DNA of 64,000 nt, from the NCBI RefSeq assembly GCF_024223415.1, contig NZ_CP100500.1; one strand, given 5' to 3'. Under the pieces are notes generated by a model. The model searched no databases, was not told the DNA's origin, and saw only the letters and a program-made list of their open reading frames with translations. The translations under genes were made by a program, and so were the position numbers. The stretch's first letter is position 1. Each line of letters starts with the position of its first letter. Shown piece by piece: positions 31,083-40,256 of this stretch. Source of the DNA: Escherichia coli. GTDB taxonomy: Bacteria > Pseudomonadota > Gammaproteobacteria > Enterobacterales > Enterobacteriaceae.

Positions 31083-31143
31083 TAACAGACAATAAACAGG
31101 CCGTGATGTGTCGCGGTCTGTTTATCGAATTAAATGCAGATAT

Positions 31144-31176
31144 AAAAAAACCAACCTTTACGGTTGGTTTTTTTTG
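31144..31176. terminator. Terminator hairpin after yejO
   Basis: aaaaaaaccaacctttacggttggtttttttt. Confidence 0.6.
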
Positions 31177-31761: not shown

Positions 31762-31836
31762 TCGGGTCCTTCCTGGAATTATGGCCCGTTACGGGGCGTC
31801 GACCTCGCGGTTTTTCGCTATTTATGAGATTTTTTG
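31762..31836 (+). other. Lambda-like cos site, copy 1 (cosQ-cosN-cosB start, + orientation)
   Basis: cgggtccttcctgg...cccgttacg|GGGCGTCGACCT|cgcggtttttcgctatttatgag resembles lambda ACGGGTCCTTTCCGG...GGTTACG|GGGCGGCGACCT|CGCGGGTTTTCGCTATTTATGAAAA (lambda sequence from memory). Confidence 0.6.
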
Positions 31837-32285: not shown

Positions 32286-32360
32286 CGAAAAATTTTCATA
32301 AATAGTGAAAACGCGCGAGGTCGACGCCCCGTAACGGGTCCACATGCCGGAAAGGACCCG
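32286..32360 (-). other. Lambda-like cos site, copy 2 (inverted; reads cosQ-cosN-cosB on the minus strand)
   Basis: Minus strand reads cgggtcctttccggcatgtggacccgttacg|GGGCGTCGACCT|cgcgcgttttcactatttatgaaaattttt; closer to lambda than copy 1. Confidence 0.65.
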
Positions 32361-34425: not shown

Positions 34426-34592
34426 AGTCAGAAATTCCTCTTTGACTTAAAAAATCATAACTGGATGTTCATCCAGTCCTGATTATAATCATGATTGCAT
34501 TTTGCGCAACAATATTGAGTTACGTTGCAAATTATGAAATGATTATCCCGATCATGTGTGCCAGTGCACCATAAAAAACCTCGTATACAAAA

Positions 34593-34660
34593 GCCCGATA
34601 AGCCCCCTGTGACCTTATCGGGCTTTTTTTAGGCGTAAAAAAGCCGGATTGCTCCGGCTT
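34593..34660. terminator. Pair of terminator hairpins between the finO-like gene and the capsid operon
   Basis: gcccgataagccccctgtgaccttatcgggc + T-run, and agccggattgctccggct preceded by an A-run. Confidence 0.5.
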
Positions 34661-34683
34661 CGTCTCTTCATGTGGTCAGGGTT

Positions 34684-35268
34684 TTATGCTTTCCGTACGC
34701 CCGAGGAACTGGCATTTTTCAGAATAATATTATGCCCTGCTGGTGGCTTACCGTTATGCTTATTTTCTGCCTTCATGTTTCTGCGCTCCTGCTGTTTTTT
34801 CTTCATCTCATCCAGTCGCTTCCCCGCGTTCAACTGGTGCTCCTGTGTCACCTCCCCGCACGGATGGCCTTTCAGGTCGTAACGCACGCCACCAGCCATC
34901 AGGGAACGGTAATATCGCACTGAACTGACATAATACGCCAGCGTTGCGCGAAGCGCTCCCTGACCTAATGAAATACCTCTCGCAGTAATATCCTCCATCA
35001 GGTCATCAAATATGCCAACCTTAAGCGGTCTGGGCGATTCCTGGCTGAAAAGTTCAGGCCAGAGCGCGGCAAGGCGTTCAACGCGTCTGATATTTTTTTT
35101 CCGGCTCTTTTCTGATTTGCGTTTTGCTGCCGTCTTCTGTTGTGTTTTCTGCTCGCGGCTCTGCTTTTGCGCTGGTGTGGTTTTATCCGGCTGTTCAGCC
35201 TCCTGCGTCTTTTTCTGCGGTGTGCCGTATATGCCTTTTGGTTTTCGGTTAATGGTCAGCTTTGTCAT
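34684..35268 (-). CDS. FinO/ProQ-domain RNA-binding protein with a basic N-terminal extension
   Basis: Likely start MTKLTINRKPK (SD ggggagaa upstream); C-terminal region shares blocks with the ProQ N-terminal FinO domain as recalled (LWPELF, RPLKVGIFDDL, DLxGxPCGE). Confidence 0.65.
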   Translation of the reverse strand: MTKLTINRKPKGIYGTPQKKTQEAEQPDKTTPAQKQSREQKTQQKTAAKRKSEKSRKKNIRRVERLAALWPELFSQESPRPLKVGIFDDLMEDITARGISLGQGALRATLAYYVSSVRYYRSLMAGGVRYDLKGHPCGEVTQEHQLNAGKRLDEMKKKQQERRNMKAENKHNGKPPAGHNIILKNASSSGVRKA

Positions 35269-35347
35269 GTTCTCCCCCTTTGTGCTGTTCCACCAGCGGC
35301 ATCTGCTACCCCGTGTCGCTCCCGCTGGTGTCGTGTTTCCCCGCCTG

Positions 35348-35668
35348 TTAATAACCGTCATCATTTACGTTATCAGGGTAATCACGCCATATTTCATCAG
35401 TAAGCGACGGTAGCCCCATCTGTTGTATTGTCCTGTCTGCGGCCCTTCTGACTGCGTGAACATCATAACGGTTTTCAGGTATCGGGCGCTTTGCCTTCCT
35501 GATACATTCCCTTGCTCTCATTGCCGCAAGTTCTCTGTGCCTGTCTTCCTGAAGAGTAATCATCACATCCTGCCACCTTCTGGCAGCCCGTCGCCACAGT
35601 CCCCTGCTCTCGAGTTCTTCTGCTGTCGCGTCGCTTATTGTCCGGTTCTTCGGTGTGCTGTTGTTCAT
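35348..35668 (-). CDS. PerC-family transcriptional activator-like protein
   Basis: 106 aa with AEELESRGLWRRAARRWQDVM, resembling the conserved PerC/Pch motif as recalled. Confidence 0.5.
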   Translation of the reverse strand: MNNSTPKNRTISDATAEELESRGLWRRAARRWQDVMITLQEDRHRELAAMRARECIRKAKRPIPENRYDVHAVRRAADRTIQQMGLPSLTDEIWRDYPDNVNDDGY

Positions 35669-35685
35669 GTTGCTCCCCGCCTGAT

Positions 35686-36096
35686 TCAGAAGGGTATATC
35701 ATCTCCGTAGGGGTCATCGCCTCCCGCTGGTGGCTCATTCCCCTGTGTGCCTGTGGTTTTGCGTCTGTTCCCGCCATGACGTGCCGCACGCGCACTGATT
35801 ACGCTGTCTGCGATAACCTGCCAGCCCTGCCGCGTTTCCCCGTTCTGTCCGGTCCACTGGCTCACCTGCATGTTACCCGCCACGCTCAGGAGTTCACCTT
35901 TGCGGTGCTTTGCCAGTGCTTCGGCCTGTCTGCCAAACGCCAGCACAGATAACCACATCGTCGCCGTTCCGTCATCTGCCTGGCTGCACGGAAGGGGGAC
36001 CGCCATACTCGCCATCGCCATTTGTGTCCCCTTGCTGGTGGTCTTTAACTGCGGGTCAGCCACCAGCCGCCCGTAAGCCGCTATCTGTGCTGTCAT
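35686..36096 (-). CDS. ssb: Single-stranded DNA-binding protein (phage-type SSB)
   Basis: 136 aa; OB-fold pattern (GRLVADPQLK...WLSVLAFGRQAE...) and acidic C-terminal tail GDDIPF typical of SSB. Confidence 0.7.
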   Translation of the reverse strand: MTAQIAAYGRLVADPQLKTTSKGTQMAMASMAVPLPCSQADDGTATMWLSVLAFGRQAEALAKHRKGELLSVAGNMQVSQWTGQNGETRQGWQVIADSVISARAARHGGNRRKTTGTQGNEPPAGGDDPYGDDIPF

Positions 36097-36560: not shown

Positions 36561-37961
36561 ATCATCCCCATCGACACAAATCACGCCGTCTTTTTCCAGC
36601 TTGGACAGCCAGCGCCGGAAGTGCTTCATCTCATACCCCAGCTTTTTCATATCGTCGCGGAGAAGGGCGATAGTGCATGGCTCTTTGTGTGCCGTCCGCG
36701 TTCTGATGCACTGCCATAGCGCGGTATGGTTTTCCGTCTTGTTGCCTGCCTCCTCGATGCGCTCCAGTTCAACGGGAGAGCGCGGCTTATCAACCACCAC
36801 CAGCGACGTGATTAACTCCCCGTCAGCGTCGGTAAAAAGCTCCACCACGCGTAAATCGTAGGCGGCCTCTTTCAGTTCCTCCGCGTCCTTCATTTTGGTG
36901 CAGGATATAACCAGGGCTTTACTGTCTGCACCTTCTCGGCGAATACGGTATTCAGCGTCCAGAGATGCACGAAATGCACTGGAACCACGCGCCCCCTTTG
37001 TTTCATCCTTGCCGGAATGGTGGACCACCAGCACCGTGGCCCCTGTGCGTCGTTTCAGGTCGTCACATCCACGGATAAACGCCCCCATATCCCGCGCGTC
37101 ATTTTCATCATTACCGCCAAAGCAACGCGCCAGCGTATCCAGAATAATCATGCGTACCGGTTTACCCGTTTCCCGTTCAACCTGGCGGGAAGCGATAACC
37201 ATTTCATCAACATCAAGCGGGGCTGCCGGAAAAATCGGGCGGTTTACCAGGTACAGATTTTTCACCCGTTCATCATTAACGATTTCCCATGCCTTGATAC
37301 GACGGGGGACACCAATGCCACCTTCACCGACAACATACATCACCGAACCATGCGCCACCCTGCGGCCTCCCCAGTGGCGCCCCGTGGCAACATGACACGC
37401 CCAGGAACACGCAAGGAATGATTTATAGGAACCGCTCGCACCGTATGTGCTGCACAATGAATTAGCCGGAATCACGCCCTTAACGACATAATCAAGCTGT
37501 GTGTCGTATCCTGCAGATCCAATGCTCATGGGTAGCGTGGTTTTTCGCTGGCTGTATTGCTCATCAGTAAGTATTTCCCCGCGCTCTGCCTGTTCGCGGA
37601 TCCGTTGCAGGTAGTCGCGCCATTCCTCCCGCTTCTGGCTGTGCATTCCCTCGGGGTAATAACTCGCATCCCGTATACCTGCCGCCGCCAGTTTTTGCCC
37701 GATGGCATTAATATTTGATGGCTTGATGTGGCCTGCCTTGTACAGCCGGACACAATAGCGACCATCGTCGATAATTTTCAGGTCTGCCAGTTCGTCAAGC
37801 TGACTGTCTCCCAGCCATACTGGCGGGACGTTATCGCCAGCAAGTCGCCCGTCCTGTTCCTGCCATTGTTTTGCGTGCGCCCAGGCATCACTACCTGCAA
37901 AAATAATGACTTCGGTCATTTTGTTGTGTGGCTGTTTTTTTAAGTTCGGTGCCAGTTTCAT
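36546..37961 (-). CDS. Replication protein: putative primase/helicase (RecA-like NTPase, AAA_25/RepA-like)
   Basis: 471 aa; P-loop-like GASGSYKSF and Walker B-like MIILDTLARCF; position typical of satellite pri-rep genes. Confidence 0.55.
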   Translation of the reverse strand: MKLAPNLKKQPHNKMTEVIIFAGSDAWAHAKQWQEQDGRLAGDNVPPVWLGDSQLDELADLKIIDDGRYCVRLYKAGHIKPSNINAIGQKLAAAGIRDASYYPEGMHSQKREEWRDYLQRIREQAERGEILTDEQYSQRKTTLPMSIGSAGYDTQLDYVVKGVIPANSLCSTYGASGSYKSFLACSWACHVATGRHWGGRRVAHGSVMYVVGEGGIGVPRRIKAWEIVNDERVKNLYLVNRPIFPAAPLDVDEMVIASRQVERETGKPVRMIILDTLARCFGGNDENDARDMGAFIRGCDDLKRRTGATVLVVHHSGKDETKGARGSSAFRASLDAEYRIRREGADSKALVISCTKMKDAEELKEAAYDLRVVELFTDADGELITSLVVVDKPRSPVELERIEEAGNKTENHTALWQCIRTRTAHKEPCTIALLRDDMKKLGYEMKHFRRWLSKLEKDGVICVDGDDVYPL

Positions 37962-38257
37962 TTTTTATCCCTGAATCCGTTAATCATGGTTTTCATCTTC
38001 TGAATATTGGCGCGTGCTTTCTCCCTGCTGGTTGGTTTACTGCGGGGCGCTGCCTGTACCAGAGAAAAATCACGCCGGAACTGATAAACAGGCATCACGC
38101 AGTCATATTCGTAGCCATCACGGCGGTAAGTGATGCGCCGTTCTGCCACGCCTTTAATCGTTACCGTACCGCCGTAGTTATCACGGAAAATATCGCCGGG
38201 ACGGATTTCAGGCCGAGCGGGGCCGCTGGCAGTAAAGCCAGAATTTTTCTTTTTCAT
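37958..38257 (-). CDS. Hypothetical protein
   Basis: 99-aa ORF overlapping the primase start (ATGA). Confidence 0.45.
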   Translation of the reverse strand: MKKKNSGFTASGPARPEIRPGDIFRDNYGGTVTIKGVAERRITYRRDGYEYDCVMPVYQFRRDFSLVQAAPRSKPTSREKARANIQKMKTMINGFRDKK

Positions 38258-38261
38258 GGTT

Positions 38262-38462
38262 TTATTTTCCTGTCAGTGATTCCGGCTTTATTCCGGCGCG
38301 AATACAGGCTTCAGAAAAAAAAGCCAGAGAACCAATAACCTCATTATTTCTAAGGCGGCATTGCGATTTCACTTTCCCTTTATCCAGGAATATCAAAACG
38401 CGCCCCGTATAATCAGATGGCACATTAAGCACTACAGGTAAGTGCGCTTCATGATTATTCAT
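38262..38462 (-). CDS. Hypothetical small protein
   Basis: ORF 38262-38531; likely start MNNHEAH (66 aa). Confidence 0.35.
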   Translation of the reverse strand: MNNHEAHLPVVLNVPSDYTGRVLIFLDKGKVKSQCRLRNNEVIGSLAFFSEACIRAGIKPESLTGK

Positions 38463-38742
38463 GGCTAACCACCTCCTGGAATTTTCTTCTGTAACGCGCC
38501 TCTGCCACATATTCAGCATAGTCCGACGCAATATTGAGAATATCGCTACCCGTTCCTGAATGTTCGGCGGTTTCCAGTAAAAAACATGCAGCTTTTACCA
38601 TGTCAGCAACACATAACAGCGCAATATCTGTATCTTCCGGTGTGCCATCAAATTCCTGTTTCAGGGCATTAAAACGATCATCACGCATAACCCCATATTC
38701 ACAATCAGCAATCAGGATGGCTTTGGCCTCATTCAGTGCCAT
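38455..38742 (-). CDS. Hypothetical protein (C-terminal, protein-like part of a 595-aa stop-free frame; true start uncertain, could extend to about 38898)
   Basis: Last ~95 codons of frame 38455-40242 are acidic and helix-like; upstream part looks non-protein-like. Confidence 0.4.
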   Translation of the reverse strand: MALNEAKAILIADCEYGVMRDDRFNALKQEFDGTPEDTDIALLCVADMVKAACFLLETAEHSGTGSDILNIASDYAEYVAEARYRRKFQEVVSHE

Positions 38743-38896
38743 ATCAGCGGTAAGCTGTGCGTAGGCCAGCAAATGCGGGATTATTGCCCCTGTATATTCC
38801 GGCTCTCTGATAATGTGGTCGGATGTGTTGATTAAATAGTTTGTGCGAAAAATGCACCTGTAACCATCAGTTAACAACGGATATACAGGGGGGACC

Positions 38897-39067
38897 ATGA
38901 ATGATAAGGGGGTGCCGTTTGATGTGCTCCTGCAAAAGCTGAATGCTGCACGCGCCGCAAGGGAACGTGAGCGCATGAGTAATAACCCTGTCCCTCCTGA
39001 ATTACCTCGCCCTGAACATTTTCCGCTTGAGGATTTCATCAGGGGACGAATCCGAACAAAACGATAA
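38897..39067 (+). CDS. Small ORF a (56 aa); paralogous to ORF c
   Basis: MNDKGVPFDVLLQKLNAARAARERERMSNNPVPPELPRPEHFPLEDFIRGRIRTKR; G-rich SD-like sequence upstream; shares the FPLE-FI / RERER motif with ORF c. Confidence 0.3.
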   Translation: MNDKGVPFDVLLQKLNAARAARERERMSNNPVPPELPRPEHFPLEDFIRGRIRTKR

Positions 39068-39310
39068 CCGCCGCCGTGATATGAGGCATCACGACGCAAT
39101 GCATTACAGGTGAGCACCATGAACAAATCCATATTATCCCCCACAGTTCTGGACGTAAACACAAAGCAGCGACAGATATTATTACGCGCCGTCATTAAAG
39201 CCAGACACGAGAAATTAAACCAAATCTTAAAATAAGATACGCCGCTACCGCTGTAAGTCTTCATCAGAAACAGAAAACGCCAGAGCAGATGAGCACGGAG
39301 GTAACTCTTT

Positions 39311-39505
39311 ATGAAAATAAACGAATCAGGGGAAATTACCGAAGCCAGCGTGGTACGCCAGCGGAGGCGGGAACGACGGGTACGGCCCCCCGCGCCATCC
39401 GATAATTTCCCGCTTGAGCGCTTCATCAGTGAACGGCCCCGCATACGCTGGAACGGCACAACCCCATACCCCGAGGAGAGACAGACAAAAAACAAACAGC
39501 GATGA
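39311..39505 (+). CDS. Small ORF c (64 aa); paralogous to ORF a
   Basis: SD ggagg 8 nt upstream; contains RRRERRVRPPAPSDNFPLERFISERP. Confidence 0.3.
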   Translation: MKINESGEITEASVVRQRRRERRVRPPAPSDNFPLERFISERPRIRWNGTTPYPEERQTKNKQR

Positions 39506-39681
39506 TGAAATCTGGAGGCCAATACCATCACGCAGCCATCAGGAGATTGCTGACGCGCTTCCTGTTCGCTGGTGGCCTCGATGGTAATCACGCGCGGTTG
39601 TGCAGTGCTCAGGGCGATAAAACGCCACACAAAGGCCGTTTGTGTGTGCGCAAGGCGTGGGGTATGCTGTGTTCCAGCCAT
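39460..39681 (-). CDS. Icd-like (host cell division inhibitor-like) protein; 3' end undefined because the frame has no stop until 38455
   Basis: Strong SD (aggag, 9-nt spacer) before ATG at 39681; MAGTQHTPRLAHTQTAFVWRFIALS...TSEQEARQQ... resembles Icd-like proteins of satellite elements as recalled. Confidence 0.35.
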
Positions 39682-39808
39682 AATCGTTACTCCTGTTAAC
39701 GGTTTGGTTAGACGCCCTGCATGTGTGCCACCACTGCGGGGCGTTGTTTTTGTGGTGTCATTGGTATACATTGTCACCTTAATGGCATTATCACTACAGA
39801 GGTTTATC

Positions 39809-39985
39809 ATGTCAACCAATGACAACAAAAAAGAAAGATTTTCCGTACAACTACGCCTAGACGCAGATTTGTTCGAGCGTTTAAGTATTGCCATGAAAGA
39901 AGATGGCGACGATAACCGATCTGGATGGATCAAAAGGCTTTTACGACGCGAATTAGATAAACGCGGCATTGAGTCAAAAAGCTGA
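39809..39985 (+). CDS. Ribbon-helix-helix (Arc/Mnt-like) DNA-binding protein
   Basis: 58 aa; ERFSVQLRLDADLFERLSIAMKEDGDDNRSGWIKRLLRRE parallels the Arc repressor pattern (beta-strand then two helices) as recalled. Confidence 0.5.
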   Translation: MSTNDNKKERFSVQLRLDADLFERLSIAMKEDGDDNRSGWIKRLLRRELDKRGIESKS

Positions 39986-40078
39986 CAGCCAACCAGCAAG
40001 CCAGCACACTGATCACATTGCCCACCAGCCGCAAATGTGGCATTGTTGGTGATGCTTTTGTTTTCCCTTGTTCCCACT

Positions 40079-40108
40079 GGCGACCCTTTTGCGGTCGCCT
40101 TTGTTTTG
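40079..40108 (+). terminator. Rho-independent terminator after the RHH gene
   Basis: ggcgacccttttgcggtcgcc + tttgtttt. Confidence 0.55.
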
Positions 40109-40202
40109 CCTGTTATCCGGCAATTGTGGCGCTTCGCCACACGGTTTATATAACCCCACTGCTCAGATTCATTTTTTGCGCAGTAGGTTAATTGTTCGCA
40201 AG

Positions 40203-40231
40203 GGCGGCTCCTTATCGGGGCCGCTTTTTTC
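40203..40231 (+). terminator. Second plus-strand terminator before alpA
   Basis: gcggctccttatcggggccgc + tttttt. Confidence 0.5.
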
Positions 40232-40256
40232 GTGTTTGTCATATCTGTGATACCCG

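Follow-up and report, generated by a model that had tools for sequence, protein, structure and literature searches.

A FinO/ProQ-family protein and a candidate alpA-antisense RNA element on a PICI-type phage satellite of Escherichia coli

FinO-domain proteins of enterobacteria and their mobile elements

Three FinO-domain proteins have been studied in enterobacteria: ProQ, the chromosomal RNA chaperone of E. coli and Salmonella, FinO of F-like plasmids, and FopA (YafB) of the IncI1 plasmid pCol1B9 (ColIb-P9). The satellite-encoded branch described here adds a fourth. Binding to the base of an intrinsic terminator and its U-tail is the shared mode of FinO-domain proteins (PMC9977716; PMC12001967), and terminators of the ProQ type have A-U pairs or pyrimidine mismatches below the stem (PMC12001967). 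A Tyr/Arg pair (Y70/R80 in ProQ, Y146/R157 in FopA) is essential for RNA binding, according to the statement in PMC7491321 that cites Pandey 2020. The two characterised element-borne members act mainly on RNAs of their own element, FinO on FinP/traJ and FopA on Inc/repZ (PMC9977716; PMC7491321), and the main ligand of FopA is its own element's antisense RNA (PMC7491321).

Plasmid- and phage-borne members are acknowledged in general terms in a FinO-family review and in the FopA paper (PMC9977716; PMC7491321), and a proQ-like gene paired with a PerC-like gene was listed in 2010 for the tRNA-Pro island of strain 042 (PMC2808357). Induction of phage-inducible satellites of the PICI type requires alpA, the master activator (10.1101/2022.09.08.507074; PMC6092414). 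Three papers on the PICIs of E. coli discuss AlpA, PerC and RgdR, and the FinO-family gene is absent from them (PMC6092414; PMC11773190; 10.1101/2022.09.08.507074). No characterisation of the satellite FinO branch was found in the literature searched.

The satellite protein shares with plasmid FinO a FinO domain that has a long basic helix on its N-terminal side and a further helix on its C-terminal side, and its gene, like that of FinO, is a dispensable and potentially trans-acting mobile-element gene that ends a long operon. It differs in being only 33-35% identical over the domain and in scoring below the cut-off of the FinO-specific model (NF010317), and its carrier is not a conjugative plasmid but a satellite without tra genes and without a FinP/traJ pair. 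ProQ is the best domain sequence match (5NB9, E=4e-18, ~37% identity). In contrast to ProQ, however, the satellite protein lacks the linker and the Tudor-like C-terminal domain, ends 31 residues past the FinO domain, has a basic N-terminal extension and stays below the cut-off of the ProQ model (NF003434); ProQ is also encoded by a core gene, whereas the satellite gene is accessory and multi-allelic. With FopA it has in common the location on a mobile element, the basic N-terminal region and the absence of the ProQ C-terminal domain, but identity (30% over 115 residues) does not extend beyond the FinO domain, there is no relation between the N-termini, and no replication control of the Inc/repZ type is seen; an identical satellite protein is found with different replicases.

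Two chromosomal relatives share the fold. RocC of Legionella (7RGT/7RGU) and NMB1681 of Neisseria (3MW6) superimpose with a TM-score of 0.8-0.85 on the target and a core rmsd of ~2.1-2.5 Å, and the structure of RocC with a bound terminator provides the RNA-binding mode assumed for the satellite protein. These proteins are ~30% identical to it, carry other extensions, and have known partners (RocR) that are absent from the island. By description, the episomal satellites of Vibrio (cf-PISP; PMC13230959) can be likened to the present case, in that a putative ProQ/FinO-like gene is carried by a phage satellite; they differ in being plasmid-like episomes with parA/repA, and their gene has been read as a maintenance function (PMC13230959).

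The host island

The window (the whole stretch of DNA analysed, 64 kb, to which all coordinates refer) belongs to the E. coli chromosome and matches strain Ch1 at 100% identity. An island of ~11 kb lies between yejO and tRNA-Pro/yejM, its - strand genes following in the order integrase, small ORF, AlpA-like HTH protein, a 595-aa "Icd-like" region (mis-annotated), DUF4222 protein, RepA-family helicase, PHROG-1231 protein, SSB, PerC, FinO, terminators, 68-aa ORF, major capsid protein, head-decoration protein and three hypothetical proteins. In every annotated FinO-bearing PICI examined, the SSB gene (here 35686..36096, - strand) precedes the PerC/FinO pair. A PICI is typically an island of about 10-15 kb at a specific att site, with int, alpA, a divergent pair of regulators, a primase/helicase replicon and a module for packaging or for redirecting capsids, and free of tail and lysis genes. 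Integrase, AlpA-like HTH, DUF4222, RepA helicase and SSB genes, capsid and decoration genes and the tRNA-Pro site are PICI traits, as is the divergent regulator (a strong - strand promoter opposite an RHH ORF of the + strand); as known here from its genes, the island belongs with the PICI-type satellites.

Homology runs in two directions. The capsid module, helicase, DUF4222 and SSB genes match O-island 51/CP-933C of O157:H7 at 82-92%, and the segment comprising terminator T1, FinO, PerC and SSB matches, at ~97%, a TerS-type PICI at the cspD/clpS site, which encodes an identical FinO protein. On these homologies the island is a mosaic satellite. A first-pass annotation of this DNA had assigned the gene to a satellite and had placed it between replication/regulatory genes and a capsid operon; the PICI gene content and the mosaic homology to O157 OI-51 and TerS-type PICIs bear out the assignment, and the gene order (RepA-type helicase and SSB on one side, capsid and decoration genes on the other) agrees with the placing. 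A comparison of the tRNA end with the far island end gave no att repeats of at least 10 nt, a PADLOC search gave no defence-system matches, and an Rfam search of the island matched the flanking tRNA-Pro alone.

The segment 32817-34425 (- strand) comprises no more than genes for a lambda-E-like major capsid protein and a head-decoration protein, together with small ORFs. Terminase large subunit, portal and protease genes are not annotated in the island, nor was a small terminase gene found there, though O157 OI-51 has one. On this gene content the island is unlike the fully capsid-forming cf-PICIs described for EcCIEDL933.

The FinO-family protein

The full - strand ORF extends over 34684-35364. 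The true start is the ATG at 35268, which makes the gene 34684..35268 (- strand) and its product 194 aa long. This start was chosen because a Shine-Dalgarno sequence read from the DNA, AGGGGGAG (35272..35279, - strand), lies 3 nt before it, because the aligned homologues all start with the peptide MTKLTINRKPKG, and because RefSeq places the start identically (WP_029400542.1, 194 aa, "ProQ/FINO family protein"). Assignment to the FinO/ProQ family draws on profile, structure-sequence, alignment and model matches. Pfam PF04352 (ProQ/FINO) matches residues 63-163 at E=1.7e-26 and nearly over its full length (model positions 8-107 of 109). The NCBIfam models for ProQ (NF003434; 2.7e-21, 76.4 bits, below the curated cut-off of 127) and for FinO (NF010317; 4.3e-21, 75.6 bits, below the curated cut-off of 136, the alignment spanning positions 43-181 of 186) also match. 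Sequence matches in the PDB include, besides the N-terminal domain of ProQ (5nb9), FinO (1dvo, 2e-15), RocC (7rgt, 2e-12) and NMB1681.

An AlphaFold model, for which an alignment of 23 sequences served as input, has a pLDDT of 84-97 over residues ~50-170 and consists of a long N-terminal helix (39-69), a compact FinO core and a long C-terminal helix (142-172), with residues 1-37 and 173-194 disordered. When the model was used as query against the PDB in Foldseek, all 26 matches at E<=0.001 were to FinO-family structures (FinO, RocC, NMB1681 and Lpp1663 only), with FinO 1dvo on top (145 aligned columns). The predicted model thus supports a FinO-domain fold, and the architecture that it suggests, a basic N-terminal extension with long flanking helices, is most like that of FinO rather than of ProQ.

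Y119 and R129, which correspond to ProQ Y70 and R80, are invariant across the 23 aligned sequences (ProQ among them). Also invariant in the alignment are the equivalents of ProQ K35, D41, L57, Y64 and P87-C88-G89, and those of R58 and R69 are kept; ProQ K54 and R62 are not conserved, being replaced by Q103 and A111 in the satellite protein. On the whole of the evidence, a functional FinO-domain RNA-binding protein encoded on a PICI is a secure prediction.

The domain (residues 63-163) is preceded by a basic, K/R/Q-rich extension (residues 1-62) with the conserved N-terminal peptide MTKLTINRKPKGIYG and followed by a basic tail of 31 residues (164-194). The extension contains 14 K, 6 R and 8 Q and has a net charge of +15 and a pI of 10.96; the pI of the whole protein is 10.3. 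Between alleles, dN/dS is 0.2-0.4 in extension and core alike, and the gene is therefore under purifying selection. The first-pass annotation had recognised a FinO/ProQ-domain protein with a Lys/Arg/Gln-rich N-terminal extension and had proposed a profile search as the check, with the lack of a FinO-domain match as the refuting outcome. The PF04352 match, the PDB sequence matches and the exclusively FinO-family structural matches confirm the domain, and the extension is present as described. What needs correction is the position: the FinO-like domain fills the central half of the protein and not its C-terminal half. No other FinO-domain ORF was found in the 64-kb window.

Distribution

DNA related to the PerC-FinO-SSB segment was found by megablast in 636 of 5,426 complete E. 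coli genomes. With sensitive blastn and the FinO gene as query, 1,613 of the 5,426 (about 30%) have matches, a count that includes some records matching flanking terminator DNA alone, and a single E. coli genome can hold up to 10 matching places. The protein search gave 136 clusters at 90% identity; the 120 listed among them are 37-99% identical, all with the Pfam assignment PF04352, and their named sources are Escherichia, Shigella, Salmonella and Citrobacter. Distant paralogues, often frameshifted, lie beside AlpA/YagK genes in CP4-like islands, and truncated copies of the FinO-family gene exist. In a set of one genome per species, E. albertii provides the sole close relative and the remaining matches are distant FinO-family proteins. 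True phages contribute little (relatives at 30-36% identity in 5 of 50,697 records), and viral contigs contain near-identical copies only. At 30-37% identity to ProQ, FinO and FopA, these proteins are, by sequence comparison, a separate and fast-diversifying branch tied to PICIs and related islands. The ProQ/FinO-family annotation is already in databases; the branch itself is common yet unstudied.

Terminators and the optional PerC-FinO cassette

The FinO gene is the last of the early (replication) operon and lies directly upstream of an intrinsic terminator, T1 (AAGCCGGAGCAAUCCGGCUUUUUU; 34634..34662, - strand), identified by fold and conservation. Its hairpin (-18.6 kcal/mol, z=-2.85) lies 22 nt past the FinO stop codon and was found by folding; a consensus terminator scanner did not pick it up. 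The same T1 sequence also ends the early operon in loci L002 and L005 and in the O157 island L004, which has no FinO gene, and homology breakpoints at 34637 and 34659 fall within it. Since the same terminator ends the early operon of an island without the gene, T1 is not a FinO-specific signal; on this pattern of conservation it is an operon terminator and a recombination junction between modules. The gene had been credited with a terminator of its own: a hairpin does stand 3' of it, but exclusive ownership is to be rejected.

Beyond T1 lies T2 (34573..34631), a bidirectional terminator-like hairpin that belongs to the capsid module and was recognised by folding and conservation. It has a stem of 13-14 bp with a 5' A-run and a 3' U-run on either strand, folds with z=-3.15 (- strand) and -3.57 (+ strand), and is 89% conserved in O157:H7 islands. 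Upstream of the FinO gene, the 79-nt spacer that separates it from the PerC-family regulator gene (35348..35668, - strand) folds into a hairpin (35291..35330, - strand; -21 kcal/mol, z=-2.66) with a 9-bp stem (CACCAGCGG/CCGCUGGUG); ~12 nt separate it from the FinO Shine-Dalgarno sequence that follows.

The PerC and FinO genes are paired in a cassette (34660-35685) that L004, L020 and L123 lack or have replaced. In the O157 island L004, PerC is of another allele, and two small ORFs stand where FinO would be. Neither PerC nor FinO is present in two metagenomic PICIs in which int, alpA, primase, DUF4222 and SSB genes were detected, and in one of these the capsid gene follows ~300 nt past SSB. Gene order varies between islands (SSB-PerC-FinO or SSB-FinO-PerC). 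Judged from these gene contents, PerC and FinO are an optional cassette, and the FinO gene is accessory, with no core satellite function.

A candidate RNA element beside alpA

At the other end of the early region, conservation and covariation point to a noncoding element on the + strand (40003..40110), a candidate ligand of the satellite protein. It comprises a conserved 17-nt motif, CACATTGCCCACCAGCC (40014-40030, + strand), then a variable hairpin, then a terminator, GGCGACC..GGTCGCC-TTTGTTTT (40079-40107, + strand). The element lies directly 3' of a small RHH/YlcI-like ORF (39812-39985) and adjoins the alpA stop codon, so that - strand transcripts leaving alpA are antisense to it. Of 16 unique copies, 13 have the 17-nt motif without any change, and the neighbouring AlpA proteins share 27-76% identity; by this measure the element is better conserved than its coding neighbours. 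The terminator, recognised by RNAalifold, is the only supported structure within the element and includes 2 compensatory pairs. Together with T1 and T2 it is of the ProQ type by the criteria of PMC12001967, and host ProQ could therefore bind these terminators too.

The element occurs in 1,282 of 5,426 E. coli genomes. Rfam, searched with the island and with the alpA-RHH spacer, has no family that matches it. Identity with the CI RNA of P4 was considered and rejected; the cI region of P4 holds the equivalent position, and there is no homology between the two. No trans target of the 17-nt motif was found in the 64-kb window at up to 3 mismatches. A convergent - strand terminator past the element, had it been conserved, would have been another feature of the region, but it is clear in the present island alone.

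Among the element-bearing PICI loci with enough sequence on the FinO side, 9 of 12 also have the FinO gene and 3 do not. The element is found without FinO in L020, L123 and probably L090, and L004 (without FinO) has a variant of it. Strict co-occurrence of gene and element is thus rejected, and so is co-variation of their alleles, an identical FinO protein occurring with both element variants.

Two further features of this region may be recorded. The greater part of the 595-aa "Icd-like" RefSeq ORF (38455-40242, - strand) is apparently spurious; the ORF crosses noncoding hairpins and is antisense to the 57-aa + strand RHH ORF (39812-39985), which itself matches NikR-RHH and YlcI/YnfO_N weakly. 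On the - strand there is a near-consensus promoter (TTGACA-17-GATAAT, 39787-39815), and a promoter-like site of the + strand (39782-39810) overlaps with it. From its sequence, the region 39782-39985 resembles a divergent switch in which the repressor mRNA is nearly leaderless.

What the satellite protein may act on

The first-pass annotation had suggested control of island or helper transcripts, or interference with host ProQ networks; the comparative data, which show an optional cassette, do not discriminate between these. The tentatively preferred reading, at a probability of roughly 0.4, is that the protein acts on terminator-bearing RNAs of the satellite itself, the alpA-antisense element first among them. 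Self-directed action is what the precedents of FinO and FopA lead one to expect. The domain with its key residues, the FinO-like architecture, the purifying selection, the conservation of the element beside alpA and the presence of a FinO gene in 9 of 12 element-bearing loci also count in its favour. By extension from the family, the satellite protein would bind the base of intrinsic-terminator hairpins and the 3' U-tail by way of its concave-face pocket (predicted to involve Y119/R129 together with R107, R118 and K83), and its long basic N-terminal helix and tail would shield the bound RNA and speed RNA-RNA pairing. The element at 40003-40110 would be the leading ligand, antisense as it is to alpA transcripts, and T1 of the protein's own operon a second possible one. 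The protein would, in this way, tune the PICI induction switch in the manner of FinOP, possibly in trans across co-resident satellites. The likeness to FinP/traJ and FinO is one of position: an antisense element beside alpA and a FinO gene at the far end of the operon.

An explicit version of this proposal would have the optional FinO protein stabilise the repressor-side 40003-40110 RNA and pair it with alpA transcripts, the outcome being a trans-acting 'fertility inhibition' between satellites. In this detailed form the proposal is unlikely to be correct. Since the terminator hairpin is common to satellites, trans action between co-resident or incoming ones is possible. Several observations count against self-directed action more generally: the element is a backbone feature that is present also in satellites without FinO; its alleles do not co-vary with those of the protein, which in identical form accompanies both variants and different replicases; host ProQ could serve the same terminators; and the early operon is presumably silent before induction. 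A host-directed role would account equally well for the partnership with PerC, a regulator for which host targets are reported.

Such a role is possible, if somewhat doubtful. PerC and FinO would then be cargo that reprograms host or helper-phage expression after transcription, and the protein would either behave as a truncated ProQ, binding many sRNAs and 3'UTRs that have terminators, or compete for these with host ProQ. Gain and loss of FinO and PerC as a cassette, with otherwise similar satellites lacking both, is consistent with cargo, as are the association of an identical protein with different replication and packaging modules, the many alleles, and the occurrence of several copies together (as many as 10 matching places in a single genome). 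Genes of the PerC/RgdR type on PICIs target the host LEE and motility (PMC11773190; PMC3378721), a functional link between ProQ and PerC in EPEC is cited in PMC12426089, and the domain is slightly nearer ProQ than FinO. On the other hand, the precedents of FinO and FopA favour RNAs of the element, the satellite protein is without the linker and the Tudor-like C-terminal domain of ProQ, two of the basic ProQ residues (K54 and R62) have been replaced, and the sequence names no host or helper target.

Distinctly less probable is a role in protecting 3' ends. Bound to T1 (perhaps also to T2), the protein would shield the early-operon mRNA from 3' exonucleases, a positive feedback that would boost expression of the replication module once the satellite is induced. 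The FinO gene or the FinO-PerC pair always closes the early operon and is followed immediately by T1; both T1 and T2 show at their base the A-U extension that is typical of 3' ends protected by ProQ; and ProQ stabilises many mRNAs through their terminators (PMC9977716). But T1 is conserved just as well in the O157 island that has no FinO gene, and so is independent of FinO; terminators of this kind would already be recognised by host ProQ; and the conserved basic N-terminal extension, which in FinO is associated with RNA pairing activity, would be left without an explanation. That the protein is a replication accessory acting with the adjacent SSB on ssDNA or RNA-primer structures, or a decaying passenger without current function, is very improbable: the SSB gene is invariably adjacent, the paralogues of CP4-like islands are often frameshifted and truncated copies exist, but the dN/dS values and the invariant RNA-pocket residues indicate a maintained FinO-type function, a FinO domain has no precedent in DNA replication, and some satellites that share the SSB and the replicase are without a FinO gene.

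If the satellite protein does act on the element's own RNAs, the consequence would be for PICI induction, which has so far been described only at the level of transcription (AlpA) and to which an RNA chaperone and an alpA-antisense element would add a post-transcriptional layer; the protein and the element would also be a natural system for following RNA choice by FinO domains inside one cell. If host or helper RNAs turn out to be the targets, the gene would represent a new kind of satellite cargo beside PerC and RgdR. The satellite FinO gene is of moderate interest, chiefly as an experimentally tractable lead.

Other features of the island

The DUF4222 protein (99 aa; 37958-38257, - strand) has R-P-G-D at residues 19-22. 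RgdR, the LEE/motility regulator of O-island 51, is likewise 99 aa long (PMC3378721) and has RGD at 20-22, and the DUF4222 protein is probably a member of its family. The idea that the FinO protein itself is RgdR is rejected: RgdR is the 99-aa product of another gene, probably the DUF4222 ORF.

The capsid operon has an apparent promoter of its own (34440-34509, - strand; -35 TTGCGC, 16-nt spacer, -10 TATAAT), the -10 element of which lies inside the palindrome GATTATAATC. This region could be a leader attenuator. Directly after yejO, a strong terminator-like hairpin (31102-31174, + strand) resembles the Rfam OrzO-P antitoxin RNA at a sub-threshold score (27.9 bits; gathering score 60); it is probably the yejO terminator.

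An inverted pair of GGGCGTCGACCT (31794-31805, + strand; 32318-32329, - strand), one mismatch from the lambda cohesive-end sequence, lies near the far island end, and the TerS-type PICI L002 carries the exact lambda sequence, GGGCGGCGACCT, directly after T1; both are probable cos sites.
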